Below are positions 10,740-58,538 of a DNA stretch of 64,000 nucleotides, one piece after another; within the stretch, counting starts at the first letter, position 1, and the number at the start of each line of letters is the position of its first letter. Location: contig OY782781.1 of the NCBI GenBank assembly GCA_963678315.1, positions 2,304,001 through 2,368,000 of the forward strand. Reading direction: 5' to 3'. Both the position numbers and the translations under genes were made by a program. This stretch comes from Candidatus Cloacimonadales bacterium (GTDB lineage Bacteria; Cloacimonadota; Cloacimonadia; Cloacimonadales; JAFGVF01). The notes below the pieces were generated by a model that saw nothing but the letters and a program-made list of their open reading frames with translations, had not been told where the DNA came from and searched no databases.

Positions 10740-12638
10740 ATGTATTTTTCTTTCGATGAAGCAACTGTTCAAAAGCTTAGTAAAGTTTCAAATGATGCCA
10801 GAGCTAGTATTTTAAAGATGACAACATTAGCTATGTCTGGACATCCAGGTGGTTCAATGTCAACAATTGATAGCTTACTAGCAGTCTATGAAGTTGCTAA
10901 TATTAACCCAGAAAACTATAAAGATGATTCTAGAGATTATATCGTTGTAAGTAACGGGCACGTTTCCCCTGCTGTATATTCAGCTCTTTCATACAAAGGC
11001 TTCTTTAATATTGATGATGCAATTTCTCAATTTAGATTAGCTGGTAGTATTTTTGAAGGACACATAGAAAGAACTGTTCCAGGGGTTGAATGGGGTACTG
11101 GAAATTTAGGTCAAGGACTATCAACAGCTTGTGGTTTTGCCTTAGCTTCAAAACTTAAAGAAATAGATAATCAAGTTTATGTATTTATGGGAGACGGCGA
11201 ACAACAAAAAGGTCAAATCAGTGAAGCAAGAAGATTTGCTGTCAAATTTGGACTTTCTAATATTACAGTTATTGTTGATTATAATCAACTTCAAATTTCA
11301 GGAGATATCAAAGAAGTAATGCCTCAAGATATCAGAGACAATTTTATTGCTGATGGTTGGGAAGTTATCGAGATTGATGGACACGACTTTTATGAAATAG
11401 CTAACGCCTTGAATGATGCAAAAGAAAGTGATTCTCCAGTAATGATTTTAGCTAATACTGTAATGGGTAAAAATGTTTCATTTATGGAGAATATTGCAGG
11501 TTATCACGGCGCACCACTAAATGAAGAACAACTAGCTGAAGCATTAAAAGAACTTAATCTAGAAAATAATCTTGAAGAGTTGAAAGAACTTAGAGCTAAT
11601 TTCGTAAGTTCAAAACATCAAAATGTTAATAACTTCATTTCTAAACTAGAAATCCCTCAAGCTATTACTTATCAAGAGAAAACTGATAATCGTTCTGCAT
11701 GGGGAAATGCTCTGGTTAATATCGAAAAAGTAAATAGCAACTCAGAAACTCCAATAGTAGTATTTGACTGTGATTTAGCTGGTTCTGTAAAAACAGCTGG
11801 ATTTGCTAAACAAGCTCCTGAAAGATTCATTCAATCAGGAATTATGGAACATAACACTTCAGTTGTTGCAGGAGCATTATCTACTTGTAACTTCCAAACA
11901 TTCTGGGCTGACTTTGGTGTGTTCGGAATAGATGAAGTATATAATATGCACCGTTTAACTGATATAAATCAAGGTAACTTAAAAGTTGCAGTAACTCACG
12001 TTGGATTAGATGTGGGTGAAGATGGTAAAACTCATCAATGTATCGATTATATTGGTCTTATGCGTAATGTATATGGCTTTGAAGTAATAGTACCTGCTGA
12101 CCCTAATCAAACTGATAGAGCAGTAAGATATATGGCTTCTCAACCTGGTAATGCTGTAATTGCAATGGGACGTTCAAAAATGTCTCCTATAACAGATGCA
12201 AATGGTAACATCGCTTTTGGCAATGATTATACTTTTGAATATGGTAAAGCTGATAAACTACGAGAAGGTTCTGATGGAGCTATTTTTGCTACTGGTACCT
12301 TAGTTTCAAATGCACTTGCTGTTGCAGATGAATTAAAGGAACAAGGAATAAATCTTCAAGTTTGGAACATCTCTTCCCCACTAGCAATTGATATTGATGC
12401 CTTAAAACAAGCTAGCGAAACTAAAAAACTATTTACAGTAGAAGATCATAATGTTTATTCAGGTCTTGGACTTTCTATTGCTGAAGCTTTAGTTGAAAAT
12501 CAATTAACTAGTAAGTTAGTTAAGTTTGGAGTTGAAAATTATGCTATTTCTGGTAAGTCAGATGATGTATTTAAACATTGTGGACTAGATATTTCTTCTC
12601 TCAAACACAGAATACAAAAGGAATTAAATGAAATCTAA
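10740..12638 (+). CDS. tkt: Transketolase (single chain)
   Basis: SGHPGGSMS, SNGH, GNLGQGLS, GDGEQQKG (TPP binding), GEDGKTHQ, VEDH. Confidence 0.92.
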   Translation: MYFSFDEATVQKLSKVSNDARASILKMTTLAMSGHPGGSMSTIDSLLAVYEVANINPENYKDDSRDYIVVSNGHVSPAVYSALSYKGFFNIDDAISQFRLAGSIFEGHIERTVPGVEWGTGNLGQGLSTACGFALASKLKEIDNQVYVFMGDGEQQKGQISEARRFAVKFGLSNITVIVDYNQLQISGDIKEVMPQDIRDNFIADGWEVIEIDGHDFYEIANALNDAKESDSPVMILANTVMGKNVSFMENIAGYHGAPLNEEQLAEALKELNLENNLEELKELRANFVSSKHQNVNNFISKLEIPQAITYQEKTDNRSAWGNALVNIEKVNSNSETPIVVFDCDLAGSVKTAGFAKQAPERFIQSGIMEHNTSVVAGALSTCNFQTFWADFGVFGIDEVYNMHRLTDINQGNLKVAVTHVGLDVGEDGKTHQCIDYIGLMRNVYGFEVIVPADPNQTDRAVRYMASQPGNAVIAMGRSKMSPITDANGNIAFGNDYTFEYGKADKLREGSDGAIFATGTLVSNALAVADELKEQGINLQVWNISSPLAIDIDALKQASETKKLFTVEDHNVYSGLGLSIAEALVENQLTSKLVKFGVENYAISGKSDDVFKHCGLDISSLKHRIQKELNEI

Positions 12639-13551
12639 ATTCGATATAAGGATACCTGTATTATTCCTTATAATTGCTATTTTTGGATGTGGTTCTAGTA
12701 AAACTCTAAAACCTCAAGTAGAAGATAATTTTCCTGAACTTCCAGAAAATATTTTTCAAGTTGCAACTTGGAATATTGAAGCTTTTCCAAAGCAAGGTAC
12801 TTCTACACTTAATATTCTTCAAAATACTATAGAAGATATGAGTTTTGATATAATTGCAGTTCAAGAGATTAATGACACAGATGAGCTAGAAGTTCTAGAT
12901 AATATGTTGAATGATTACTCCTGTATTGCGAGTTACCCTCATTCACCCAATAGTGAATATTATAATCCTGTAGTTGGTTATATTATTAATGATAATACAG
13001 TAACTGTAAATAGATCTTATAAGATATTTACACAAGATAGTAGACTGTTTCCTAGAACACCGTATCTTATTGATTTAGTTTGGAATGACCAAGAGATAAC
13101 TATAATCAATTTACATTTAAAGGCCTCTGGTGATAATATTATTGATTATAATGACGAATGGGATGAGGAATTACGTAGATTACAAGCACTTGATACATTG
13201 CACGATTACATCGAAAATGAATTAGCTGATCGTAATGTTATTGTTGTTGGCGATATGAATGATGAAATTCAAGATAGTAATGCAACAAATGTCTTTACAA
13301 GTTTTATAAATGATAGTAATTATGTATTTGCTGATGATGCTATGGTTCAAGATATAGATAACTATTCTTATCCGGGTTGGCCATCACATTTAGATCATAT
13401 TATTTTGAGTAATGAATTACATGATGAGTTTAATAATGAAAATTCTGATTGCTATACGATAAAAATTGATAATATTATAAATGGATATGAAAGCCTGGTT
13501 TCTGATCATAGACCAGTATTACTAAACCTATACTTTAATATGGAGAAATAA
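12628..13551 (+). CDS. Exonuclease/endonuclease/phosphatase (EEP, DNase I-like) lipoprotein
   Basis: Lipobox IFGC; TWNIE, AVQEI, LHLKA, VGDMND, LDHI and SDHRPV catalytic motifs. Confidence 0.88.
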   Translation: MKSKFDIRIPVLFLIIAIFGCGSSKTLKPQVEDNFPELPENIFQVATWNIEAFPKQGTSTLNILQNTIEDMSFDIIAVQEINDTDELEVLDNMLNDYSCIASYPHSPNSEYYNPVVGYIINDNTVTVNRSYKIFTQDSRLFPRTPYLIDLVWNDQEITIINLHLKASGDNIIDYNDEWDEELRRLQALDTLHDYIENELADRNVIVVGDMNDEIQDSNATNVFTSFINDSNYVFADDAMVQDIDNYSYPGWPSHLDHIILSNELHDEFNNENSDCYTIKIDNIINGYESLVSDHRPVLLNLYFNMEK

Positions 13552-44888: not shown

Positions 44889-46353
44889 GAATTGCATAAT
44901 TTATAGTTTAGATCCTTCTAATAATATATATGATTCTGTTTTAGTCGATCAAGGAAAAATCGTTAAATTAAATCTTTCAATTAATGAGATTAATAGTCTA
45001 GACTGTGAGACAATTGATTTAGACGGTTATACGCTTTTCCCTGGGTTTACTGATTCACACACCCACTCTTTCGAAGGTGGATTATACAGTATGGGGGCGA
45101 ATTTATCAGATTGTAGAACTATCGATGAAGTCCTTCAAAAGATTAGTCAATCGCAAGTTATTGGTGGCTACAAATTTGCATATAGTTTAGATGAAAATAG
45201 CTTAAAGGAACACCGATTCCCTAGCAGGGATGAACTCGACAAGGTTTGTCCTAATAATCCTCTATTACTACGCAGAGTTGATGGGCATTCTTGTGTAATA
45301 AACTCAAAAGCAATTGAGATAATTAACTTTAAAAAGAAGCTTAACGATAATTTTAATGGTTTTCTTAATAAAGAACTTAACGATTTAGCTGCACATACTT
45401 TCCACAATACACTCACAGATGAAGCTATTATAAGTGCTTATACAGCTGCTAATAAAATAGCAATAACTAGTGGACTCACGACTGTTCATACTATGATTGG
45501 GGATGCGCAATATAGTTTCAACCACTATCCTTTAATCAAAAATTCTTTGAATAATTTCACCATAGATTTTGAGTTATACCCTCAGTTTTTTGATGTAAAA
45601 AAAGCAGTAGAACATGGTGCAAGTAGAATAGGCGGATGTATACTTGCTGACGGATCATTTGGTTCTTATACTGCAGCTCTATCTCAACCATATAAAAATA
45701 CTGACAACATTGGTTCATTATATCAGAGTGACCAATTTTGGGATGACTTTGTATTAGAAGCCCATAAGAATAACCTTCAAGTAGGAGTTCATTGCATTGG
45801 TGATAGAGCTATAGATCAAATTGCAAGATCTTATGCAAAAGCTCAACAGAAAGCCCCCAAAGACCTAAGACATCAGATAATTCATAACGAATTAATGAGT
45901 GATGATACTTTAAAGTTGATGAAAGAAAATAACATCTCTGCAGTTATGCAACCTATGTTTGATAAGCTTTGGGGTGGTAAAAATGGATTTTATAAGCAAG
46001 TTCTTGGTGAAGAACGAGCATTAGCAACTAACCGATTTAAAACTATCAGCGATTCAGGAATACTATTAACTGGATCTTCTGATTGGTATATAACCACTTT
46101 AAATATCTTAGAACAGCTTGATGCGGCTGTTAACATTCATAATCCAGAGCAAAGACTATCTGTATATGAAGCATTGAAGATTTACACCAATAACTCAGCC
46201 AAACTAGCCCATAATGAAGCTAATAAAGGTTCTATCGAAGTTAATAAAATTGCTGATTTTACTATTCTTAAAAGCGATCCAATCAAGAGAAACACATTTA
46301 AGAACAATCAAATTGTAGGTGTAATCAAATCTGGAGAATTAATATTTGTTTAA
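44875..46353 (+). CDS. Amidohydrolase (YtcJ-like, Amidohydro_3)
   Basis: PGFTDSHTH, DGH, ADGSFGS.TA, VHCIGDRA, GSSD. Confidence 0.88.
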   Translation: MKIFKNCIIYSLDPSNNIYDSVLVDQGKIVKLNLSINEINSLDCETIDLDGYTLFPGFTDSHTHSFEGGLYSMGANLSDCRTIDEVLQKISQSQVIGGYKFAYSLDENSLKEHRFPSRDELDKVCPNNPLLLRRVDGHSCVINSKAIEIINFKKKLNDNFNGFLNKELNDLAAHTFHNTLTDEAIISAYTAANKIAITSGLTTVHTMIGDAQYSFNHYPLIKNSLNNFTIDFELYPQFFDVKKAVEHGASRIGGCILADGSFGSYTAALSQPYKNTDNIGSLYQSDQFWDDFVLEAHKNNLQVGVHCIGDRAIDQIARSYAKAQQKAPKDLRHQIIHNELMSDDTLKLMKENNISAVMQPMFDKLWGGKNGFYKQVLGEERALATNRFKTISDSGILLTGSSDWYITTLNILEQLDAAVNIHNPEQRLSVYEALKIYTNNSAKLAHNEANKGSIEVNKIADFTILKSDPIKRNTFKNNQIVGVIKSGELIFV

Positions 46354-46837
46354 TCAACCAAGAGCTAAGTATCTAATAGATCAAGAAATAGACCTATTTC
46401 CTGAAGCAACTCTACAAGATATATACAAATTATTCTACCAAGCAATCTTTGGAACTTCTCATTTCATAGACTCTAAAGACAAAGCAAAGCAGATGTTAGA
46501 AAACGAGCTTTTAAAATTAGATACAAATGTTTACCCCTTAGAATTAGATATTTCTTATGTTCTGAATATTAAGAGAGTTAGTCTCTACAATATTATACTT
46601 AAGAAAATTTCAACTGATCGATTACTAAATAATTTTATTGCTATGAGTAGTAAAAAGCAAATCTTTACTAATGCTGTTTGGATTAAAGAATGGCAAGAGA
46701 TTAAGCAGTTGACATGTGACCTATACCCTAGTATAACTCAAAATGTTAATGTAGCTATAGATACTAACACCCAGTTACACCATAGTCAACAATATAGGGA
46801 ACACTACCAACCACACTATAGACTAAATGGATTTTAA
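46346..46837 (+). CDS. Conserved hypothetical protein
   Basis: Overlaps the neighbouring genes in operon fashion; P.ATLQDIYKLFYQ...G..H and HHS..YR..Y.PHYR look conserved. Confidence 0.65.
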   Translation: MFNQPRAKYLIDQEIDLFPEATLQDIYKLFYQAIFGTSHFIDSKDKAKQMLENELLKLDTNVYPLELDISYVLNIKRVSLYNIILKKISTDRLLNNFIAMSSKKQIFTNAVWIKEWQEIKQLTCDLYPSITQNVNVAIDTNTQLHHSQQYREHYQPHYRLNGF

Positions 46838-47785: not shown

Positions 47786-47814
47786 TTTACAAACAGAATA
47801 ACTTATTATAAAAT
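47786..47814 (+). promoter_or_regulatory. Candidate sigma70 promoter of the HhH-barrel operon
   Basis: TTTACA-N17-TAAAAT, 41 bp upstream of the ATG. Confidence 0.5.
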
Positions 47815-47855: not shown

Positions 47856-50570
47856 ATGAAAAAAAAACTTATTGTATTATTATTTCTAATTGTCTGTTTT
47901 TATGCACAGGCACTTATTGATCTAAACACGGCGTCCTACGAAGAGTTGAAAACTCTTCCGATTACACAGAAACAAGCTAAAGATATCTACGAATATAGAG
48001 AGTTCGTAAGTTTCTTTAAAAGTATTTTTGATTTAAGGAATATTGATTCTGTAGATCAAGAAACTCTACTCGAAATTAGGCCACTTGTTAAAGTCAGCCA
48101 TTATACTGATGTTGACGAAACTGCTCAAAGAAGAGAAGAAATCGGATATCTACTTGAAAGATTAGGTAACAGTGAAGGTTCTTCTGAGGGTATGAATGAC
48201 ATCTGGCAAGATTTCTTAATGTCACCTCAAAATATAAATTCCATGCTTTATGAAGATCTCATTAGTATTCCTAATGTGTCTTCAGTTGACGCTGTTGCTA
48301 TTCTCAATAGAAGAGCAATGGGTGATTCATTAAAGAGTGTTAGAGATATTAGAACATCTCAAGGTATTTCATATTATGGTTATTCAAATTTAAAACACTA
48401 TGTATTCTTTGAAGATCCTAAAGAAAATCGCAGAATGTTTGTAGATTATCAATTTAAAGCTGAATCTCAAAACTTTGAAGATGATGCAATTGACATGTAC
48501 AAGCAACCTATGCTAAGAGATACTTACCAAGTTGATTATGATGATTTAACTGACATCCAAAATGAATATCGACGCAAAGATAATTCTTATTGGGGTTACT
48601 TTAATCTAGGAGCTTACAGCCCTGCTGTTACTAATAAATTAAGAGTTAGATATGGTAATCAATTTAAATTTGGTATGATGAATTATTCAGGTAAATCTCT
48701 ACCATCTATGACTGAACAAGATTGGAATACTGTTCGTGATGATAGCAAATATTATGCAGGTTATGAAGATAGTTTCAGGCTTAATAGTCTAGGTTTAGGT
48801 AATGTATTTATCAAGTCATATCTTGGTAATTACAGAGCAACTTATGGTGAAGGTCTTGTAATGGAAAACACAGACTTCTACTCACCTAGAAAGACAGGAC
48901 ATGGCTTCTCAAAAAGAATCTTGGGTATTACACCAGATCTTTCTAAAACTCAAGAATACGCTCTCAAAGGTGGTGCTGTTGAATTAAAGAATAATTATTT
49001 CACAGCTAGCATGTTCTATTCAAAAGATAAGAAAGATGCATTAGTTTACATGGAAAGAGTTGAAGATGAAGACGGTAATGTTCACTCTGTTCCAGTAAAA
49101 GATGAAAATGGTAACTACAAAGTATTCTCATATATAAACTCAACAGTAAGATTTGATAATGAAGATTTAGCTGAAGCTGAAGTTCACTTAAATAATGAGA
49201 CATCAATAACAGGTCCTACTTATAATGGTGGCACTACTGGTTATAATATTGATTATATAAATCTTGCACCAAGAAGAGATATCATGAATGAAGAGATACT
49301 TGGAACACATTTACAAGTAAATCCATTTATTGGCACTCATATAGGTTTTACTACTTATACAGCTGTTTATGATAATGCCGAATTCATGGTTCCTGAGGGT
49401 CAGGATTTGATTTCATTACTATTAAGAGATGAATCAACTTACGATAAATGGAAACTTCCTAGTAACGAAATCGAAGCTATGTATTCTACAAAAACGGATT
49501 CTTATGACAAAGATTATAGAAGAGTTATTGGTTTTGATGCTGGTACTGTAATTAATAATGTAGCTATTGATGGTGAGTATGCTGAGTTATCAGTTGACGG
49601 CGATGATATGAAACTAGGTGATGATCCTAAAGCTTATATAGCTAAAGCGCATACTCAATACAACAATGTTTATTTCTTAACTCTTTATCGTCATTATGAC
49701 TTAGATTTCGACAATCCTTATTCAAATGCTTTTGCAGAACATAATAGATATGATGATACAGCTTTTGATAAGATTACTTACGGAATGACTAACCCTCTAA
49801 TCTCAGATGTTTACTACAACTCTTCTCAAGCTCAAGCAGAAGAAGGTGTCTACTTTGAGACTAGATATCAGTTCCATAGAAACTTCATTCTTGGTAGAAC
49901 TTATTTAGATATTTGGGAAAGACTTTCAGATGCTAGAAATAGTGTTAGATTCCAAAGTGAACTCGAATACAGAGCTTTCCATCAACTAAGGTTTAAACTT
50001 AAATATAAAAACCAAACAAATAGATATGCTGATGATGCTGATAGAGGTGTTTCTAAAACACAAGAATATACTCTTTCTGCTAGAATGCTTCTATCTAATA
50101 GAGATTACTTAGATATTGAGTATAGATATAACACAGTAAAATCTCCTCCTTATGTATCACTTACTAATCCTGTCCAAGAAGGCGACAACTCTCACGCTCA
50201 AGCTATGACTTTAATGAATGGTGACTATATTGCAGCAAATTATACTCACTACTTCAGCCCTAAGCTAAAAGTACGTGGATCTGTGTGCTTCTGGAATGGT
50301 TATGATTTATCACATTGGGACTGGGAAGATGTTGAACTTGACTTCATGGGAGACAGAGGATTTAAATACTGGTTCTCAATTCAAGATCAAGTATCTGAAA
50401 ATATCTATGTTGCTTTTAAATACAAAAACAAATTTTATCGTACTCAAGAAATGTTTATAAGAAAATATAACAGTACAGATGATCCTTCTCTTGATGGTAT
50501 GCAAACATATTATGACAGAGTAGAGAAAAAAGACCATACATTTAGAATACAAATAGACTATAGATTTTAA
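47856..50570 (+). CDS. Exported protein with two ComEA-type helix-hairpin-helix modules and a predicted C-terminal outer-membrane beta-barrel
   Basis: Signal peptide (AQA); IDLNTASYEELKTLP...AKDIYEYRE...FKSIFDL and QNINSMLYEDLISIPNV...ILNRR; amphipathic aromatic strands; terminal QIDYRF. Confidence 0.8.
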   Translation: MKKKLIVLLFLIVCFYAQALIDLNTASYEELKTLPITQKQAKDIYEYREFVSFFKSIFDLRNIDSVDQETLLEIRPLVKVSHYTDVDETAQRREEIGYLLERLGNSEGSSEGMNDIWQDFLMSPQNINSMLYEDLISIPNVSSVDAVAILNRRAMGDSLKSVRDIRTSQGISYYGYSNLKHYVFFEDPKENRRMFVDYQFKAESQNFEDDAIDMYKQPMLRDTYQVDYDDLTDIQNEYRRKDNSYWGYFNLGAYSPAVTNKLRVRYGNQFKFGMMNYSGKSLPSMTEQDWNTVRDDSKYYAGYEDSFRLNSLGLGNVFIKSYLGNYRATYGEGLVMENTDFYSPRKTGHGFSKRILGITPDLSKTQEYALKGGAVELKNNYFTASMFYSKDKKDALVYMERVEDEDGNVHSVPVKDENGNYKVFSYINSTVRFDNEDLAEAEVHLNNETSITGPTYNGGTTGYNIDYINLAPRRDIMNEEILGTHLQVNPFIGTHIGFTTYTAVYDNAEFMVPEGQDLISLLLRDESTYDKWKLPSNEIEAMYSTKTDSYDKDYRRVIGFDAGTVINNVAIDGEYAELSVDGDDMKLGDDPKAYIAKAHTQYNNVYFLTLYRHYDLDFDNPYSNAFAEHNRYDDTAFDKITYGMTNPLISDVYYNSSQAQAEEGVYFETRYQFHRNFILGRTYLDIWERLSDARNSVRFQSELEYRAFHQLRFKLKYKNQTNRYADDADRGVSKTQEYTLSARMLLSNRDYLDIEYRYNTVKSPPYVSLTNPVQEGDNSHAQAMTLMNGDYIAANYTHYFSPKLKVRGSVCFWNGYDLSHWDWEDVELDFMGDRGFKYWFSIQDQVSENIYVAFKYKNKFYRTQEMFIRKYNSTDDPSLDGMQTYYDRVEKKDHTFRIQIDYRF

Positions 50571-50582
50571 TGGAGGATTGTA

Positions 50583-52034
50583 ATGATAAAGAAGATTCTA
50601 GTTTTATTAATAATATTAATTGTGGGAAGCTTAAGTGCTTATTCGCTTAGTCAATATGCTTACGGAACAAGAGCTCAAGCATTTGACGCTACTTCTTATG
50701 GAATGGCTAATACAGGTGCAGCAGGTTCTAATTCTCCATTAGGCATAGCCTTAAATGCTAACAATCTATTTACCCAAAAAGGAGATATTGGCTTTCAAGT
50801 AAGTTCTTCTGTTCTTAAAAATGAAGAAAAACGTTCATTCCCAATGTACGATTCATTTGATTCTTACTTTAATGAATCAACTTATATTTCTAATGAAAAC
50901 TTGTATTTCAACCTTGGGGTAGCAACTTATGCAAAATATAAATTACAAAGTGATATGTATCTTGGAATGGGTGTTTACTACCAACCTAAATACATTTTTG
51001 ATGCTGACTATTTAGAAGAAGTTAGAAACAATCGTAATTCAGATGATGATGGTTACCCTGAAAAAATAGCAGAGAATAGTATCAACAATGAAGGTTCTCT
51101 TGACGCTTTTGGTTTAGCTTTCGCATACAAGCTTGAAGCAAATGTTCCTTATCTAAAATCACTTGCTCTTGGTGCAAATATAGAGATGTTAGATGGAAAT
51201 GCAGATAATGAAACTGAAGTATTTTGGACTAATTGGGCTCATGAAACAGCTGGTTATGGTAGCTTACCTAACTATAAAAACACTATTTCTAGAGACCTAT
51301 CAGGAATAAATATTCAAGCTAATTTAACTTACGAAATTAACCACAGAACTTCATTCGCTTTTTCTTATACTCCTTCAACAGAGATTGAAGTAGATGGAAC
51401 CTATGAACGCGAGTTATATACTACTTACGAAGATAGCTTACATACTCTAGAGCTTCCTATGTCTTTACAAGATACTGTAATGTCAAACTTCTATATGAAT
51501 AACTACGACTTACCTTCATCAATGAGATTTGCTCTTCAATTCAGACCTAGAAATATCTTAAGAACTGTTATTAACTTTGAAATTGAAGCAGTTAATTGGT
51601 CTGATACTAATGACTTGTTTGATGATGAATTCAATTACTATGTTGGTGCTGAACATCAAATTATTGAAACAGTACCTGTGAGAATTGGTTTTAGCCAAAC
51701 AACTTCTTATATGGTTAGTTTTGAAAGTGATGTAGTTAATGAAGGTACAGCTGATGAAGAAGATGTTGTCTATACCTACGCTACTAGAATTCAAACTCCT
51801 GCAGTTTCTATAGGCTCAGGTTTCGAATTCTCTGAAAAAGTAAGAATGGATCTTGGTCTTAAATATTCTTTCACTGAATACGAGACTTTAGACCTTTTCC
51901 CAGACACTTTCTACGATTATTCTGCTTTATGGCCTAATAGTCATATTGATCTACAAGATAGAGATTGGACTAATCCTGACACTGTAAAAGAAAATACATT
52001 TGATTTAATGATGTCGTTAACTTATGACTTTTAA
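50583..52034 (+). CDS. Outer-membrane beta-barrel, FadL/PorV-like
   Basis: Signal peptide; ATSYGMANTGAA...ALNANNL N-terminal hatch-like motif; alternating strands; terminal SLTYDF. Confidence 0.72.
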   Translation: MIKKILVLLIILIVGSLSAYSLSQYAYGTRAQAFDATSYGMANTGAAGSNSPLGIALNANNLFTQKGDIGFQVSSSVLKNEEKRSFPMYDSFDSYFNESTYISNENLYFNLGVATYAKYKLQSDMYLGMGVYYQPKYIFDADYLEEVRNNRNSDDDGYPEKIAENSINNEGSLDAFGLAFAYKLEANVPYLKSLALGANIEMLDGNADNETEVFWTNWAHETAGYGSLPNYKNTISRDLSGINIQANLTYEINHRTSFAFSYTPSTEIEVDGTYERELYTTYEDSLHTLELPMSLQDTVMSNFYMNNYDLPSSMRFALQFRPRNILRTVINFEIEAVNWSDTNDLFDDEFNYYVGAEHQIIETVPVRIGFSQTTSYMVSFESDVVNEGTADEEDVVYTYATRIQTPAVSIGSGFEFSEKVRMDLGLKYSFTEYETLDLFPDTFYDYSALWPNSHIDLQDRDWTNPDTVKENTFDLMMSLTYDF

Positions 52035-52058
52035 TCAATAACCCAAATGGTGACACAT

Positions 52059-53708
52059 ATGAAGAAAATATATATATTATTTATATTAGTTGCTTTAAGC
52101 TCAATGCTATTCTCTGAGAACCTCAGATTAGACATCATGTTTTCTAACGATGTACATGGTGGCATTGATAGAGATGAAGCGACTTTTATGAACCCAGAGT
52201 TCCCTCCAAAACTTGGAGGAGGAGCATCACATGCAACACTTATCAAGCATGTGAGAAGTCTCAAGAATGAAAACAGAGATAATTTGCTTTTGGATGCTGG
52301 AGACTTTTTCCAAGGTCATCCAGTTGGTACCGTAACTAACGGCAAAGCAGTAATGAAATACTATAATATGATTGGTTATGATGCTTTAACTATTGGTAAC
52401 CATGAATACGATATTCCAGAAGATAAGTTAGTAGAAACTCTTCAATTAGCTGAATTCCCTATTCTTTCCTGTAATATTGTCAATAGACAAACTGGCCAAC
52501 TTGTAGATTATGTTGAGCCATATATTATGGTAGAAAAAATGGGTGTAAGAATTGCTATTATTGGGCTTACAACTGTTGATACAGAGTTAATGAGTTTTCC
52601 TGAAAATATCAAGAATATTGATGTCTTAGACGAAATCGAAACACTTACCAAGTATGTTAAGATAGTTCGTGAAGACGAGAATGCAGATGTTGTTTTAGTG
52701 CTTGGTCACATGGGACTCCCATACGACCCTCAAGAAGCTTATGACAGAAGATACAAGAACGATGAAGTAGTTAAGAAGACCAAATATTATGGATGGGATT
52801 CACAAGAAATTCTACATAATGTTCCAGGTGTTGACCTGTTAATTGGTGGACACATGCATAAAGGTTTTAAAGAACCTTGGATTGACCCTGTTACCCATGG
52901 TATGGCAATCCAAGGATATGCTTTTGGATCTAATCTTGGTTGGTTAACTCTTACTATTGATAAAGATTCAAAGACTGTTTCTGGTTATGAATTACCATCT
53001 CACTATAATGGACTTCTTATAAGTATGTTTGAAGATGAATTCCCATTGGATAAAGAAATTGATGAATTAATCTCAGCAGAAAAGAAGATTGCAGAAAAAG
53101 GTATGGACGATGTAATTGGTATGGCTGAAGTCAGTCTTAATAGAATCAATGTTGATGCTCAATCCTTAATGGGAAACACTGTAGCGGATGCTATGAGACT
53201 AGAAAGTGGAGCTGATTTCTCATTCATTAATCTTGGTGGTATACGTGCTGAAATACAAGCTGGACCTGTAACTTATAGAGATATCTTTTCAGTTATGCCC
53301 TTTGATAATCAATTAATCGCATTTAAATGTGATGGACTCTTCCTAAAGAAGATTATTGAAACTAGAGTTGCCGGTTCAAGACATGGACTAGTTACTTCTG
53401 GTGGAAAAGTTGTCTATTCTAAAGAAAGAGAAGATTTCGATAGAGTTACAACCTTATTGATTAATGGTGAAGAATGGCAACCAAACAAAATATATACTGT
53501 AGCAACTACAGACTTCCTTATGCAAGGTAATGCTGGTCTATCACTCTTAACAAAAGTGAAGGAAGAAAATATTATTCGCATGGAGACAAATCTCAGAGAT
53601 GCAATTGCTAATCATTTCAGAAAACGATCTCCTATTGAAACAGAAATAGATTCACGTTGGAATCGTAATGATAGTTCTACTCCTGAATCATATTTGAAGG
53701 TGGATTAA
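52059..53708 (+). CDS. Exported 5'-nucleotidase / UDP-sugar hydrolase (UshA/CpdB family)
   Basis: Signal peptide; NDVHG, DAGDFFQG, GNHEYD, GHMG, GGHMH, NLGGIR, PFDN. Start at ATG 52059. Confidence 0.92.
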   Translation: MKKIYILFILVALSSMLFSENLRLDIMFSNDVHGGIDRDEATFMNPEFPPKLGGGASHATLIKHVRSLKNENRDNLLLDAGDFFQGHPVGTVTNGKAVMKYYNMIGYDALTIGNHEYDIPEDKLVETLQLAEFPILSCNIVNRQTGQLVDYVEPYIMVEKMGVRIAIIGLTTVDTELMSFPENIKNIDVLDEIETLTKYVKIVREDENADVVLVLGHMGLPYDPQEAYDRRYKNDEVVKKTKYYGWDSQEILHNVPGVDLLIGGHMHKGFKEPWIDPVTHGMAIQGYAFGSNLGWLTLTIDKDSKTVSGYELPSHYNGLLISMFEDEFPLDKEIDELISAEKKIAEKGMDDVIGMAEVSLNRINVDAQSLMGNTVADAMRLESGADFSFINLGGIRAEIQAGPVTYRDIFSVMPFDNQLIAFKCDGLFLKKIIETRVAGSRHGLVTSGGKVVYSKEREDFDRVTTLLINGEEWQPNKIYTVATTDFLMQGNAGLSLLTKVKEENIIRMETNLRDAIANHFRKRSPIETEIDSRWNRNDSSTPESYLKVD

Positions 53709-53712
53709 TCTA

Positions 53713-54390
53713 GTGAATATTCTTGCAATTGATACTTCTAATAATTCAGGAAGTATTGCTCTTCAAATAAACAAAGAAATACGTTTTAGTTGTTTCTTTA
53801 ATATAAAGATTACTCATTCAGAAACTTTAATGCCTGAGATAGCTCGGGCATTGAGCTTCTGTAATCTGAAAGTTAGTGATTTAAACGCTATTGCTATTGC
53901 TATTGGGCCTGGATCATTTACAGGACTTAGAATTGGATTAGCCTCAGCTAAGGGGCTAGCTCTTGCCAATAAGATTCCTATTATAGCAATTTCTTCCCTA
54001 AAGGTTCAAGCAATGAACTTCTACAAATGTTCTAGAGATATTTTGGTAGTTCAAGATGCTAGGATGAAAGAATTATATGTTGCTAAATACGACCAATATT
54101 TGAATGAAGTAATTCCAGCAAAATGTATCAAACCAATCGAGTTTTCAGAATATGCAGATAATAAAACAATAATTTGTGGTACTGCTGTTTCTACTTACAA
54201 AGACACTTTCAATAAAATTGCTAATGCTGAAATCAATGAATTAGCAGAGAAGAATTCACCGAGAGCAGAATCAATGTTTTCAATTATTGAAATTGAACAT
54301 ATTAATCCTGCTTTTGATTTTGATGAAATATCAAAATTAGAACCTTATTATATAAGAAAGTCTCAAGCAGAAATAAATTATAGATTATAA
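53713..54390 (+). CDS. tsaB: tRNA threonylcarbamoyladenosine biosynthesis protein TsaB
   Basis: ILAIDTS, HSE.LMP, GPGSFTGLRIG, DARMKE, EPYYIR. Confidence 0.95.
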   Translation: MNILAIDTSNNSGSIALQINKEIRFSCFFNIKITHSETLMPEIARALSFCNLKVSDLNAIAIAIGPGSFTGLRIGLASAKGLALANKIPIIAISSLKVQAMNFYKCSRDILVVQDARMKELYVAKYDQYLNEVIPAKCIKPIEFSEYADNKTIICGTAVSTYKDTFNKIANAEINELAEKNSPRAESMFSIIEIEHINPAFDFDEISKLEPYYIRKSQAEINYRL

Positions 54391-54445
54391 GCTTGACAAA
54401 TTCTTATAAACTATTTAGTCGATATTATTATATTTTGGAGTTAAT

Positions 54446-55483
54446 ATGTTTTTACAAAGACTTTTTAGTAAATTATCTAATGACATAGCTATAGATTTGG
54501 GGACTGCAAATACCCTTGTATATAAAAAAAACGCTGGTATAGTTATTAACGAACCATCAGTTGTATCACTCAGTTCTGATTCAAAGAAGATTCTTGCAAT
54601 TGGTACTGATGCGAAAGAGATGCTGGGTAAGAATCCAGCTGAAGTTAATGTTATAAAACCATTAAAAGATGGTGTTATTGCTGACTTTCAAGTTACCGAA
54701 ATTATGTTAAGAAACCTTATTCTTAGAGCACAAAAGAATAAATTCCATATAAGACCGAGAGTTATAGTATGTGTCCCTTCTGGAATCACTGAAGTGGAGA
54801 AAAGAGCTGTTAGAGATAGTGCTTTACATGCAGGCTCTCGAGACGTTTATCTTGTTTCAGAACCAATAGCAGCTGCAATAGGTGCAGATTTACAGATACA
54901 AAAACCTTTTGGTAACTTAATTATGGATATAGGTGGTGGAACAAGTGAGATTGCTGTTATTTCATTATCACACATTGTTGTGCACAATTCAATTAGAGTT
55001 GGTGGAGACTCTTTAGATCTTGATATCGTGAATCACCTTAGAAAGAAAAATAACCTGTATGTAGGTATTCAAACTGCAGAGTTAATAAAGAAACGCGTCG
55101 GTTCATGTGTTCCTTTGGAAGAAGAGCTTACAATGAATGTTTCAGGAAGAGATATCGTTAGTGGTTACCCAGTAACTATAACTATAACTTCAGAAGAGAT
55201 AAGAGAAGCAATCAGTGATACTGTTGATATAATGATTGACGCAATCAAGAAACTTTTTGAAAAAACTGCTCCTGAATTGGCATCTGATATTGCTTCCCGA
55301 GGTGTATTCCTTACTGGAGGAGGAGCTCTTCTAAGAGGATTAGATGAAAAGATTAAACAAACTGTTGATTTACCAGTTCATGTAGTTCCAGACCCGCTCA
55401 CATGTGTTGTCAAAGGTTCTGGTAGGATTTTAGATAATATTGAAGAATACAAAGAAGTTCTTATTAAAAAGATTGAAGACTAG
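54446..55483 (+). CDS. mreB: Rod shape-determining protein MreB
   Basis: IDLGTANT, EPSVV, GVIADF, DIGGGTSE, LTGGGALL. Confidence 0.97.
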   Translation: MFLQRLFSKLSNDIAIDLGTANTLVYKKNAGIVINEPSVVSLSSDSKKILAIGTDAKEMLGKNPAEVNVIKPLKDGVIADFQVTEIMLRNLILRAQKNKFHIRPRVIVCVPSGITEVEKRAVRDSALHAGSRDVYLVSEPIAAAIGADLQIQKPFGNLIMDIGGGTSEIAVISLSHIVVHNSIRVGGDSLDLDIVNHLRKKNNLYVGIQTAELIKKRVGSCVPLEEELTMNVSGRDIVSGYPVTITITSEEIREAISDTVDIMIDAIKKLFEKTAPELASDIASRGVFLTGGGALLRGLDEKIKQTVDLPVHVVPDPLTCVVKGSGRILDNIEEYKEVLIKKIED

Positions 55484-55485
55484 CG

Positions 55486-56271
55486 TTGAAAAAATATCCT
55501 GTATTATATTTTGCTTTATTAGTATTATCAATAATTTCTATTTTCGGTTCAAATGATTTACAAATCTTGAAGTCTCAAATGGCTTCAAGATTCATTGTTT
55601 TACCTATGATTGAGACCTTAGACTATTTCAAAACTCTTCAACATAGAGATGCTGAAATTGATTCTTTGAAGGTTAAATTAATTAATGAAAAGCAGCACAA
55701 TGATTTTCTTAATAGTGAAATAATTAAATTAGCTTTAGAATTACGTCTTAAAGATAGTTATTTCACTCAAGTTGATTCCCTAATGAATCAATTTAATTAT
55801 ATTTCGGCAAAGGTAATATCAAACTCTTATGCGGATAACAATAAGATACTAGTTCTTGATAAAGGACTTTTAGATAATATTAAGATTAATGATGCTGTCG
55901 TAAGTACAGAAGGCATTGTTGGTAAAGTTATAGCTGTACAAAGTACTAGCAGTACAGTTTTACCTTTTGTGAATAATAATTCTATGTTCTCAGTTATGAA
56001 TAATAAAAATGTTCAAGGTATTTTGCAAACAGATTTCAATGGCCATGTTAAAATGAGTTTTATTGAAAAGAATTCAGATATAAGTCCTGGAGACACTCTT
56101 TATACATCAAATTTATCAATGATATTTAAAGACTATTATACTCCAGTTGGAAGAGTAGAATCAGTCCAACTTGCAAAAAATGAACTTTACTTAGAAGCTT
56201 CTATTGTTCCTTTTACTGAAGTAAATAACTTAACTACTGTTTTTATTATAAAGAAGAACCCTGATGAGTAG
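55486..56271 (+). CDS. mreC: Rod shape-determining protein MreC
   Basis: TM plus coiled coil, LDKG, GIVGKV, GDTLYTS; synteny. Confidence 0.9.
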   Translation: MKKYPVLYFALLVLSIISIFGSNDLQILKSQMASRFIVLPMIETLDYFKTLQHRDAEIDSLKVKLINEKQHNDFLNSEIIKLALELRLKDSYFTQVDSLMNQFNYISAKVISNSYADNNKILVLDKGLLDNIKINDAVVSTEGIVGKVIAVQSTSSTVLPFVNNNSMFSVMNNKNVQGILQTDFNGHVKMSFIEKNSDISPGDTLYTSNLSMIFKDYYTPVGRVESVQLAKNELYLEASIVPFTEVNNLTTVFIIKKNPDE

Positions 56272-56755
56272 CATAATATTAGTAATTTTAACTTTAGTTT
56301 CATCTTTCTATCAAGCCTTATTCATTAACGAATATACACTAGGAATTTACGTTCCAAACATAGTACTATCATTGTTTATATTCTCTCATCATATTTCAAA
56401 TAAGTACACACATCTGATTACTTTTTTTATCATTGGGCTTGTATTAGACAGTTTAAACCCTATTATGTTCGGGACTAATACTCTGTCATTTATGCTTTTA
56501 ATCAGCTTAAATAATACATTAAAGGCTCATTTTTCTTTAGATTTAGTTGTTAATCGTTTACTTCAGATTTTTGCTATTAATCTAATCTATTATGGATTAT
56601 ATTTTATTAATTATGCAATTAGATTCGAGATAGATTTCATCTCTTCCCTACTTTTCCAACTTCTTGGGATCTTAATCAACTTCGTAATTACTCTTATTCT
56701 CTTTTTCATATTTGACTTAATTATTCATTTAAAACTAGACTTTAATGAAAACTAG
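56264..56755 (+). CDS. mreD: Rod shape-determining protein MreD
   Basis: Hydrophobic; PN, GLVLD, FG motifs; lies between mreC and mrdA. Confidence 0.82.
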   Translation: MSSIILVILTLVSSFYQALFINEYTLGIYVPNIVLSLFIFSHHISNKYTHLITFFIIGLVLDSLNPIMFGTNTLSFMLLISLNNTLKAHFSLDLVVNRLLQIFAINLIYYGLYFINYAIRFEIDFISSLLFQLLGILINFVITLILFFIFDLIIHLKLDFNEN

Positions 56756-58538
56756 TATTTCAACAACATTTGTATTGCGGATAGTAGTTATAACAGCATT
56801 CTGCTTGCTATTATCTTTTTTATTTATCTTACAGATTATCCATGGACAGACATATAAAGAATATGCTGAAAACAATTATGTTCGTAAGCATATTATCAAT
56901 GCTAAACGTGGAGAAATCTTTGATAGAAACGGACAGCCTATTGTTCAAAATTACCCTTCTGTCAATCTAGTAACAATTCCTCAATTCATCAATAACCTAG
57001 ACTCATTAAAGATTTTCTTAAATACTAATTTTTCCATTAGTGATACAGAAGTTGATAGTCTTTTATATGAAGCAAGATTTAGAAGGTATAAGAAGAATAT
57101 ACTAATCGATAACCTCTCTACGGAACAAATTGCAACAATTGCTGAGAATCTTAACTACTACCCTTCATTAAGCTTAGAAATTGGTAATACTAGGAAATAC
57201 CAAATAGCAAATCATTTCACTGGTTATATTGGCAGAATCAATTCCAAAGAGTATAAGAGCTTAAAAAATGAAGGCTACGATTTTAACAGCTATCTTGGCA
57301 AAACCGGCATTGAAAAGCAATATGAATCATATCTAAAAGGTTCCAACGGTATAGGCCTGACCCTAGTAGATGCTAAAGGTAGAGATTTAAAGCTGTTTAC
57401 AGATATTTCTAATAGAGAAGATTTAATATATAAGCCAGCAATTGATGGAATGAACATCAACTTAACACTTGATTTAAACTTGCAGAGTCATGTTGATTCA
57501 CTGTTTAAGGATAACCAGCAAGGTGCAGCTATTGTAATTGATTATAAGACTGGAGAAATATTAGCCTATGTGTCCAAGCCTTCAATGGATCAGAATATCT
57601 TCATGTCGAGAATCAGCCAAGATCAATGGCAGAGTATTCAAGCAGATACTTTAAAACCATTTCTTGATAGAGTAAGCAACGCTAATTATCCTCCAGGATC
57701 TGTTTTTAAGATTGTTTCTTCAGGATTTGGTTTAGATTTCGATTTAGTAAATCGCTGGACTGAGCTTAGCTATTGTGATGGAGGTATGCAAATAGGTGAT
57801 AGATATGTTAAATGCTGGAACCATTATGGTCATGGAAGGTTGAACGTCGTAGAAGCATTAAAATATTCGTGTGATGTTTATTTCTATGATTTATCAATGA
57901 AAATTAACCTTGATGATTTTCGCTACTATGTAAAAGACTGTATGCTAACCCAGAAAACAGGTATTGATTTACCCACTGAAGCAAAAGGTTTTTTCCCTTC
58001 TGAAAAATGGTACAAATCCACCTATGGAAAATACACTTCAATAAAAGGGCACATGGTTATACTTTCTATAGGGCAGGGTGAAGTTTTTGTTACTCCATTA
58101 CAAGTATGTTCTCTGTATGGAGCAGTAGCCAACAATGGAGTATGGAAGAAACCCCATCTATTCAAACAAGCTAGCCGTAATGATGAAAAACTTTTATATG
58201 AGGAAATAGAATCTAATACAAGTGTAGATTTACCTTTTAAAGATTCAACACTTCCAATAATCCAAGAAGGTTTAAGAGCAGTTGTGAACGAGAATGGTGG
58301 AACTGCTAGAATGTTAGATTTTCCAGGAAGACATATTTATGGTAAAACAGGTTCAGCTGAACATAAAAAAGGACGTTTAACTCATGGCTGGTTTGCAGGC
58401 TATGATACAGATACTGGTATTGCTGTGGTTACTTTTAGACAAGAGGCTGGTCATGGAGGAAGTGTCGCTGTTCCTATTGCTAAAGATATTTTTGAATTTT
58501 ACTACAATTACTTAGAGAGCAAAAATGATAAAAAATAA
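56745..58538 (+). CDS. mrdA: Penicillin-binding protein 2
   Basis: RGEIFDRNG, YPPGSVFK (SxxK), SCDVYFY (SxD), GKTGSAE (KTG). Confidence 0.95.
   Translation: MKTSISTTFVLRIVVITAFCLLLSFLFILQIIHGQTYKEYAENNYVRKHIINAKRGEIFDRNGQPIVQNYPSVNLVTIPQFINNLDSLKIFLNTNFSISDTEVDSLLYEARFRRYKKNILIDNLSTEQIATIAENLNYYPSLSLEIGNTRKYQIANHFTGYIGRINSKEYKSLKNEGYDFNSYLGKTGIEKQYESYLKGSNGIGLTLVDAKGRDLKLFTDISNREDLIYKPAIDGMNINLTLDLNLQSHVDSLFKDNQQGAAIVIDYKTGEILAYVSKPSMDQNIFMSRISQDQWQSIQADTLKPFLDRVSNANYPPGSVFKIVSSGFGLDFDLVNRWTELSYCDGGMQIGDRYVKCWNHYGHGRLNVVEALKYSCDVYFYDLSMKINLDDFRYYVKDCMLTQKTGIDLPTEAKGFFPSEKWYKSTYGKYTSIKGHMVILSIGQGEVFVTPLQVCSLYGAVANNGVWKKPHLFKQASRNDEKLLYEEIESNTSVDLPFKDSTLPIIQEGLRAVVNENGGTARMLDFPGRHIYGKTGSAEHKKGRLTHGWFAGYDTDTGIAVVTFRQEAGHGGSVAVPIAKDIFEFYYNYLESKNDKK

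Follow-up and report, generated by a model that had tools for sequence, protein, structure and literature searches.

In sediments, oceans and digesters, extracellular DNA constitutes a major reservoir of phosphorus, nitrogen and carbon. To our knowledge, the routes described so far for DNA import across the outer membrane are the type IV pilus with its secretin and, recently, the TonB-dependent Ddb and Riemerella transporters only. A run of three genes in Candidatus Cloacimonadales bacterium raises the question whether a further route exists. The genes (gene 1, gene 2 and gene 3; Table 1) lie in a window of 64,000 nucleotides, positions 2,304,001 to 2,368,000 of contig OY782781.1, and the source genome is one contig of 2.99 Mb that is 97.9% complete. 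Gene 1 joins a tandem of helix-hairpin-helix (HhH) modules to a predicted large outer-membrane barrel, gene 2 encodes a smaller barrel and gene 3 a 5'-nucleotidase. The trio is a real and conserved system, probably of the DNA-utilisation type, and by the searches made its putative transporter architecture has not been described before. We consider it quite likely that this outer-membrane system is concerned with nucleic acids.

The strongest evidence that the three proteins belong together is their linkage. Of the 121 Cloacimonadota genomes sampled, 112 contain gene 1; the nine genomes in which it was not found comprise all six of one family with 1.6-Mb genomes (f12) and three others. The six f12 genomes belong to one lineage and hence count as one event; the five f12 genomes that were checked hold no orthologous nucleotidase, and two of them hold only a 31% paralogue. 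In 20 loci from 20 Cloacimonadota genomes, gene 2 directly follows gene 1 without exception, and gene 3 comes directly next in 18, lies 3 kb further in one and was not found in the remaining 1.7 kb of the contig in another. The flanking genes in these 20 loci are not common beyond the family of the window. A further set, the best 80 loci retrieved with a 16-sequence alignment, carries Cloacimonadota labels with few exceptions (one Armatimonadota, three uncultured bacterium); among the loci with enough downstream sequence, gene 2 is in place in 76 of 77 and gene 3 in 70 of 70. The linkage extends to other phyla. An exhaustive search with gene 1 yielded 538 representatives at E <= 1e-3, and 88 when the threshold was set to E <= 1e-30; many of these are 780-890 aa long with 30-37% identity. 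The source names include Eisenbacteria, Zixibacteria and Calditrichaeota, to which the Atlas adds Fidelibacterota. The distant relatives were followed in 76 metagenome loci (Calditrichaeota-led alignment; 8 clusters at 50% identity, 26 at 70%), in which a gene 2 homologue comes next in 66 of 67 and a gene 3 homologue follows in 53 of 55, with exceptions at loci L178 and L192. The trio is thus syntenic elsewhere, a genuine and deeply conserved unit both within Cloacimonadota and in distant phyla.

In these distant loci the operon is longer. A PorV/PorQ-like barrel of about 300 aa stands directly upstream of gene 1 in all 59 loci with room for it (NCBIfam PorV/PorQ 38-68 bits vs a cut-off of 90). 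Further upstream, 37 of 37 loci with room encode one or two proteins with lamin-tail (LTD), oligonucleotide-binding (OB)-fold (PF01336), DUF5689 and PKD domains and with type IX secretion system (T9SS) tails at the C-terminus, and genes of the endonuclease/exonuclease/phosphatase (EEP) family occur downstream of the trio in 15 of 38. These neighbours lend the trio a nucleic-acid theme independent of the HhH annotation, and the nucleic-acid utilisation that the original prediction had proposed gains support from the OB-fold/LTD/DUF5689 surface proteins and EEP nucleases of other phyla. Searches with small-barrel, LTD-OB and EEP seeds found none of these in the 80 Cloacimonadota loci, and a PKD/DUF5689/T9SS-tail seed found matches in 7 of the 80.

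The N-terminal part of gene 1 is of the ComEA/EEPD1 type, in agreement with the two ComEA-type modules first read from the sequence. Pfam HHH_3 (PF12836) matches directly after the signal peptide (E 1.3e-13; 51.2 bits vs a cut-off of 27), and the model of this first module superposes on ComEA 8dss_B with Z 12.3 and a root-mean-square deviation (rmsd) of 1.1 Å over 64 residues, at 34% identity. The NCBIfam comE/ComEA models match gene 1 below their cut-offs (TIGR01259, 44.2 < 152.35; TIGR00426, 22.4 < 53.1), the comE model matching in two stretches. The second module is preceded by a strongly conserved linker helix, with P124, D145 and A146 as invariant columns. Over its full length (residues ~20-187), the tandem aligns with its counterpart in EEPD1 (PDB 9yi2_A, E 1.6e-8); the alignment to ComEA 8dss is weaker. 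By sequence, the N-terminal tandem of EEPD1 is also the closest solved structure to the tandem-coding stretch (47907-48431, +); EEPD1 joins its tandem to an EEP nuclease domain, which parallels the pairing of HhH and EEP in the bacterial loci. Among 60 diverse members of the gene 1 family, the two modules and the loop motifs hardly vary, and public annotations name the homologues 'helix-hairpin-helix domain-containing protein' or 'ComEA'. DNA binding by the tandem is plausible from these alignments, but not assured. ComEA (PMC3879209, partial text) and gene 1 have the HhH fold and the probable periplasmic site in common; gene 1 differs in carrying a tandem, as EEPD1 does, fused to a barrel of ~710 residues, in having lost part of the hairpin glycines and in missing the comE cut-off, whereas ComEA is a small soluble or membrane-anchored protein.

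The C-terminal region of gene 1, suspected from the outset to be a barrel, is now predicted to be one by both modelling and fold searches. The AlphaFold2 (AF2) model, built from a 30-sequence alignment, has a pLDDT of 70.9, a pTM of 0.69 and ~24 long strands over residues 194-903. In the DSSP string, the turns after even strands are all 2-6 residues long and the loops after odd strands mostly long. Short even-to-odd turns are the standard pattern of outer-membrane proteins and would place both termini in the periplasm; on this model, the HhH tandem would also lie on the periplasmic side. Fold searches by Foldseek and VIA with the gene 1 barrel returned large outer-membrane barrels only, with nearly tied top Z-scores of 12-14.6 for FimD, PapC, MtrB, SusC, TonB-dependent transporters (TBDTs), porins and VDAC. 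The translocation domain of the usher FimD was the best barrel match (Z 14.6, 366 residues, rmsd 5.5 Å), and ushers have ~24 strands as well; unlike FimD and PapC, gene 1 has no usher Pfam match and no β6-β7 plug domain, and the locus has no chaperone or pilin genes. Because the usher Z-scores are nearly tied with those of unrelated barrels, they reflect a shared size class, not kinship. As modelled, the gene 1 barrel has no specific known relative among the fold-search matches. Neither LptD nor BamA nor the secretins stood out in these searches; usher, TBDT, BAM-accessory and SprA readings were set aside.

Neither the Plug, TonB-receptor nor usher families of Pfam match gene 1, and Plug and TonB-receptor match gene 2 no better. 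The VIA alignments of gene 1 to TBDTs (Z 11-12.3) start at model residues 94-109, so that the second HhH module may lie near the position of the TBDT plug in the model. Within the barrel, the most conserved motifs of the family fall into two long loops (residues 329-369 and 615-661), which are both poorly modelled and are candidates for a lumen gate.

Gene 2 had been read as a FadL/PorV-like barrel, and both its model (pLDDT 84, pTM 0.82; 14 long strands) and Foldseek agree with this. It has the 14-strand barrel and N-terminal hatch that characterise FadL/OMPP1/TodX proteins, and matches FadL 3pgs_A at E 1.2e-15. The BamG chains of three Bacteroidota BAM structures score equal to or above FadL (TMt 0.74 for 9hjm_F, 0.67 for 9n2d_B and 0.66 for 9hiv_F), while PorV in the T9SS complex (8gl6_F) is a weaker match. 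Pfam Toluene_X (PF03349) reaches 23 on gene 2, below the gathering score of 29.7, and a precomputed PF03349 match exists for 12 of 42 homologues among those listed. The NCBIfam search with the window's protein gave no family match, including BamG (NF053685) at E <= 0.1. An orthologue from another phylum (locus L141) scores 63.9 bits for NCBIfam BamG (cut-off 250), matches PorV_fam and reaches only 12 bits for FadL. The source genome encodes a separate, canonical FadL (182 bits). Taken together, these matches suggest that gene 2 is a barrel of the adaptor type and not a channel for fatty acids. In Bacteroidota, the FadL-family subunit BamG is essential, binds to BamA and holds a surface lipoprotein in place, and known FadL-type barrels of the Fibrobacteres-Chlorobi-Bacteroidetes (FCB) group serve larger machines as adaptors, according to the available part of PMC12611786. 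Gene 2 resembles PorV-SprA and BamG-BamA in being a 14-strand FadL-family barrel encoded with a larger one, whose partner and surface-protein anchor it would likewise be. The large barrel here is not BamA or SprA, though; the genes linked in the genome encode nucleic-acid enzymes, and the NCBIfam scores stay far below their cut-offs.

The BamG-like fold of gene 2, the near-universal presence in the phylum and the housekeeping neighbours in the source genome would all suit a role in general outer-membrane biogenesis, with the trio as an accessory set of the β-barrel assembly machinery (BAM) unrelated to nucleic acids. We regard this role as highly improbable. The flanks are not conserved beyond the window's own family, and every conserved neighbour elsewhere has nucleic-acid-related domains; the orthologue stays far below the BamG cut-off and the window's protein gives no match to that model, and the conserved linkage is to the HhH barrel.

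Gene 3 is a UshA-family 5'-nucleotidase with all metal motifs, as had been assigned. Metallophos (54.6 bits) and 5_nucleotid_C (107.7 bits) both exceed their Pfam cut-offs, and the closest solved relative is the nucleotidase 3ivd_A (E 1e-50), with UshA next. Gene 3 reaches none of the NCBIfam equivalog cut-offs (UshA, 195.7 < 600; NadN, 128.7 < 436) and is therefore a member of the family and not a UshA orthologue. It retains D35, H37, D86, N118, H119, D122, H221, H269 and H271, which are conserved in 19 aligned Cloacimonadota sequences; the catalytic ones among these positions are assigned as in UshA. Inspection of the aligned Cloacimonadota N-termini revealed ordinary signal peptides and no lipobox, which suggests a periplasmic location. 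Gene 3 shares the combination of Metallophos and 5_nucleotid_C domains, the intact site and the signal peptide with UshA and the periplasmic 5'-nucleotidases by which V. cholerae scavenges phosphate from extracellular DNA (PMC4714964, excerpt). It differs from UshA in being encoded in an operon with two barrels and in that, among its relatives, the site decays or the C-terminal domain becomes an EEP nuclease.

This decay is extensive. The catalytic set is intact in 21 of 57 gene 3 homologues outside Cloacimonadota. In 22, an EEP domain stands in place of the 5_nucleotid_C half and the motifs of the metallophosphatase have degenerated (for example GNHE to GLQE), and the remaining 14 are altered or cut by contig ends. 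The degenerate metallophosphatase-EEP fusions occur in loci L138, L140, L144-L152, L155-L161, L164, L167, L169 and L195-L201, where a second EEP gene is usually next; L141, L149, L165, L166 and L184 keep the nucleotidase architecture with the metal ligands lost. Retention of the scaffold where the active site has decayed suggests that gene 3 serves as a structural subunit as well. For the HhH tandem paired with gene 3, complex prediction gave a score of 0.41 vs 0.00 for the best of three controls, which the tool rates as 'weak support'. On its scale, 116 of the 157 solved complexes and 2 of the 215 mismatches attain that mark, but only 18 of the 157 solved complexes, along with both mismatches, scored 0.60 or less. 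The runs agree in at least 26% of contacts, with a pLDDT of at least 85 for the partners.

In the mechanism that we infer for DNA binding, passage through the barrel, the side of each part and the order of steps, gene 1 would be a TonB-independent outer-membrane conduit of ~24 strands, and its tandem HhH would hold incoming nucleic acid in the periplasm as a tethered, ComEA-like ratchet and might also dock the enzyme. Gene 2 would be a partner barrel of the PorV/BamG type that sits beside the conduit and anchors surface components, and gene 3 would convert nucleotides to nucleosides and phosphate in the periplasm. In other phyla, T9SS-secreted LTD/OB-fold/DUF5689 proteins on a PorQ-like barrel would capture DNA at the surface and EEP nucleases would cut it, the corresponding parts of Cloacimonadota being presumably encoded elsewhere in the genome. 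Surface capture would then be followed by nuclease cleavage, entry through the large barrel, retention by the HhH modules and completion by periplasmic nucleases or the nucleotidase. The chances that import and ratcheting proceed in this specific way are about even, and slightly less than even that the trio is the Cloacimonadota core of an FCB-wide machine for the uptake and breakdown of DNA or oligonucleotides.

Several observations weigh against this mechanism. Three of the four HhH hairpins, hairpins 1-3, align without the canonical Gly-x-Gly of ComEA and EEPD1, and with its loss DNA binding may be weaker or may have given way to protein docking. The barrel model is of moderate confidence only (pLDDT 70.9), its two long conserved loops probably occlude the pore, and its conserved residues are balanced between acidic and basic instead of lining a positive lumen. 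No nuclease was found in any of the 80 Cloacimonadota loci. Catalysis is intact in only 21 of the 57 distant relatives, and dephosphorylation is thus not a universally conserved step; the proposed coupling of uptake to nucleotide dephosphorylation may apply to Cloacimonadota, where the site is intact, but dephosphorylation is not the conserved activity of the wider family. The source genome encodes PurH of de novo purine synthesis, and no NupC-type nucleoside transporter with PF07662 was found in it, other transporter families not having been searched, so that a dependence on salvage is not evident. Auxotrophy as the cause of the near-universal presence was rejected because of PurH. Finally, gene 2 and the small upstream barrel of the relatives resemble T9SS/BAM adaptor barrels, and the source genome is a heavy user of T9SS, with 126 matches to the C-terminal sorting domain, which keeps a secretion reading alive.

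In such a reading, the barrels would form a secretion or attachment complex that exports and/or anchors nucleic-acid-degrading and DNA-binding proteins, possibly including gene 3, at the surface; DNA would be degraded outside, its small products would enter otherwise, and the HhH modules would act as a periplasmic cargo receptor. The BamG (TM up to 0.74) and PorV matches of gene 2, the NCBIfam BamG and PorV matches of its orthologue, the PorV/PorQ-like small barrel upstream and the T9SS tails of neighbouring proteins and of the source genome are consistent with this, as is the adaptor role of known FCB FadL-type barrels (PMC12611786). The gene 3 scaffold that persists where catalysis is lost and the weak HhH-gene 3 contact (0.41 vs 0.00) point in the same direction. 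However, the signal peptide of gene 3 is an ordinary one and the protein lacks a T9SS tail, secretion by T9SS uses a translocon of its own, and among PDB sequences the HhH tandem best matches nucleic-acid proteins, namely ComEA and EEPD1 of the EEP nuclease family. We also know of no secretion translocon that carries HhH domains, and consider a secretion complex rather unlikely. The original prediction had named a T9SS-type nature of the barrels as an outcome that would overturn it; this doubt is partly touched, in that gene 2 is nearer to PorV/BamG adaptors than to a fatty-acid channel.

The degenerate hairpin glycines and the weak predicted contact between HhH and nucleotidase could also indicate a channel for mononucleotides or short oligonucleotides only, in which the HhH modules have lost DNA binding and hold the nucleotidase at the pore exit. 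Such a channel would agree with the presence of a nucleotidase and no nuclease in the Cloacimonadota locus and with conserved loops that likely narrow the pore. A barrel of 24 strands is, however, far larger than the known nucleoside channels, and relatives pair the barrel with periplasm-type EEP nucleases and an inactive nucleotidase scaffold, which implies that polymer reaches the periplasm. We therefore judge a mere nucleotide or nucleoside channel to be improbable.

Returning to the preferred uptake mechanism, the source genome was examined for related parts beyond the trio. As originally stated, the window holds neither ComEC nor a secretin, and both are encoded elsewhere in the genome, together with a separate 213-aa ComEA-like protein with its own HhH tandem. 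An ordinary DNA-uptake route may therefore exist, and the idea of a pilus-independent route derives from the locus, which lacks such parts, and not from the genome as a whole, which contains ComEC, one secretin and a ComEA-like protein. This brings up natural transformation: the trio might be a DNA entry port that feeds ComEC, as a counterpart of the Riemerella pair of TonB-dependent transporter and DUF5689 protein, with breakdown as a side activity. ComEC is present, ComEA-type domains are a hallmark of transformation, and ddbCD are related to Riemerella transformation genes in the accessible part of PMC12478041. On the other hand, the linkage to a nucleotidase or to nucleases, which would destroy the substrate, is strict, and the classical route could draw on the secretin and the separate ComEA-like protein, which makes a transformation port a distinctly improbable explanation.

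The closest known system is the ddb DNA-utilisation locus. In B. thetaiotaomicron, a member of the Bacteroidales, ddbABCDEF is required for the depletion of exogenous DNA and is related to the Riemerella transformation genes, and DUF5689 corresponds to DdbD, which is proposed to bind DNA as the partner of DdbC, the TonB-dependent transporter (PMC12478041, available sections). As far as those sections describe ddb, the loci of other phyla share with it an outer-membrane transporter, DUF5689/OB surface proteins and secreted as well as periplasmic nucleases, and both follow the logic of a polysaccharide utilisation locus: capture, cutting, import and completion in the periplasm. The differences concern the transporter and its partners. 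DdbC is described in the same sections as a 22-strand TonB-dependent barrel with a plug, whereas gene 1 has ~24 strands and no Plug or TonB-receptor domain, and instead an N-terminal HhH tandem and an obligatory FadL/PorV-like partner. In comparison with what these sections report for ddb, the nucleases here are of the EEP type, a UshA-type nucleotidase is a fixed member, and T9SS tails take the place of lipid anchors. The window's locus further differs from ddb in lacking a DUF5689/OB surface partner and an exported nuclease. The combination of LTD, OB and EEP is also the domain set of Xds, the extracellular exonuclease of V. cholerae (PMC6746945, partial text). Unlike in Xds/ExeM, the three domains sit on separate proteins encoded by a single operon in other phyla, and the window's locus lacks them. 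A literature search retrieved no description of the HhH-barrel/FadL-like/nucleotidase family or locus, with the reservation that supplementary tables might mention such genes. We tentatively propose, as an idea with somewhat less than even prospects, a new class of outer-membrane nucleic-acid translocon that is a TonB- and pilus-independent barrel of ~24 strands, carries its own ComEA-type ratchet facing the periplasm, uses PorV/BamG adaptors to hold T9SS-delivered DNA-capturing proteins and docks a periplasmic nuclease or nucleotidase; this 'DNA utilisome' would be ancestral to Cloacimonadota, Fidelibacterota, Calditrichota, Zixibacteria and Eisenbacteria.

Candidate counterparts of the additional parts are scattered over the source genome. 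An EEP-family lipoprotein 35 kb upstream of the trio shows 32% identity over 266 aa (E 6e-37) to the EEP gene that follows the trio at 13997-14977 of L140, a Fidelibacterota-like locus. The best homologue of the small barrel, a PorV/PorQ-like protein of 281 aa (260607-261464), is immediately preceded by an LTD-OB-like protein of 473 aa whose end resembles a T9SS tail. In other phyla this pair stands upstream of the HhH barrel; in the source genome its neighbours are lspA, a PNP_UDP_1 gene of the purine-nucleoside-phosphorylase family, divIVA, a thymidine kinase gene and IS21. Giant proteins with LTD, DUF5689 and T9SS tails are encoded in open frames of 2618 aa (157942-165795) and 1948 aa (2512522-2518365), with LTD and DUF5689 repeated, and an EEP protein with a T9SS tail is also found.

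Table 1. Features of the trio and of related parts in the source genome (positions in the window unless marked 'contig')
Feature	Position	Strand	Description or basis
Promoter-like hexamers TTTACA-17-TAAAAT	47786-47814	+	in the gap before gene 1; candidate only
Gene 1	47856-50570	+	904 aa; signal peptide, tandem HhH and predicted ~24-strand outer-membrane barrel; ends YRF
HhH module 1 (residues 19-78)	47910-48089	+	Pfam HHH_3; ComEA 8dss_B superposition
HhH module 2 (residues ~120-185)	48213-48410	+	second comE stretch; EEPD1 tandem alignment
Barrel domain of gene 1 (residues 193-904)	48432-50567	+	~24 strands predicted, DSSP of AF2 model
Most conserved loop (residues 329-369)	48840-48962	+	GEGL..NTD..R.TG.GF.KR..G..PDLS; invariant columns; pLDDT ~42
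Second conserved long loop (residues 615-661)	49698-49838	+	FDNPY.R.F; conserved columns; motif used as search pattern
Gene 2	50583-52034	+	483 aa; 14-strand FadL/PorV/BamG-like barrel; ends YDF
Gene 3	52047-53708	+	553 aa; UshA-family 5'-nucleotidase; signal peptide without lipobox
EEP-family lipoprotein	12628-13551	+	signal peptide ...AIFGC; candidate unlinked nuclease partner
Small barrel and LTD-OB-like pair	contig 260607-262890 (locus L207 8605-10882)	-	
ComEA-like protein	contig 2539101-2539535	-	213 aa; tandem HhH
ComEC	contig 1146146-1146937	-	
Single secretin	contig 550967-551428	-	

In the window itself, the tight run of three exported proteins was confirmed at exactly the coordinates first given; the gaps, put at 12-24 nt, are 12 nt each. 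A gap of 112 nt precedes gene 1. The claim that a promoter leads the run was not sustained: promoter-like sites in the region number 43, vs 45.6 +/- 7.7 expected in shuffled sequence, and are not above chance. On the downstream side, tsaB begins 4 nt after gene 3 and is followed by mreB, mreC, mreD and the gene for penicillin-binding protein 2 (53713-58538, +), with which the trio may be co-transcribed in the source genome; this arrangement is common only to the window's own family (locus L031). Upstream, an open reading frame of 163 aa (46346-46837, +) between an amidohydrolase gene and an MnmL/YtqA radical-SAM gene has no Pfam or NCBIfam family match and shows 41% identity to its counterpart in the same-family genome of L031.

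If the proposed mechanism is true, the trio would represent a third architecture for DNA import, present in nearly all sampled Cloacimonadota and in abundant uncultured marine and sediment lineages. The gene 1 family offers a testable case of a ComEA-type ratchet that is physically fused to its own pore, and gene 2 suggests that barrels of the PorV/BamG type serve as general adaptor modules of FCB outer-membrane machines. In addition, the fact that many relatives keep the nucleotidase scaffold although its site has decayed suggests a structural function of the gene 3 subunit.

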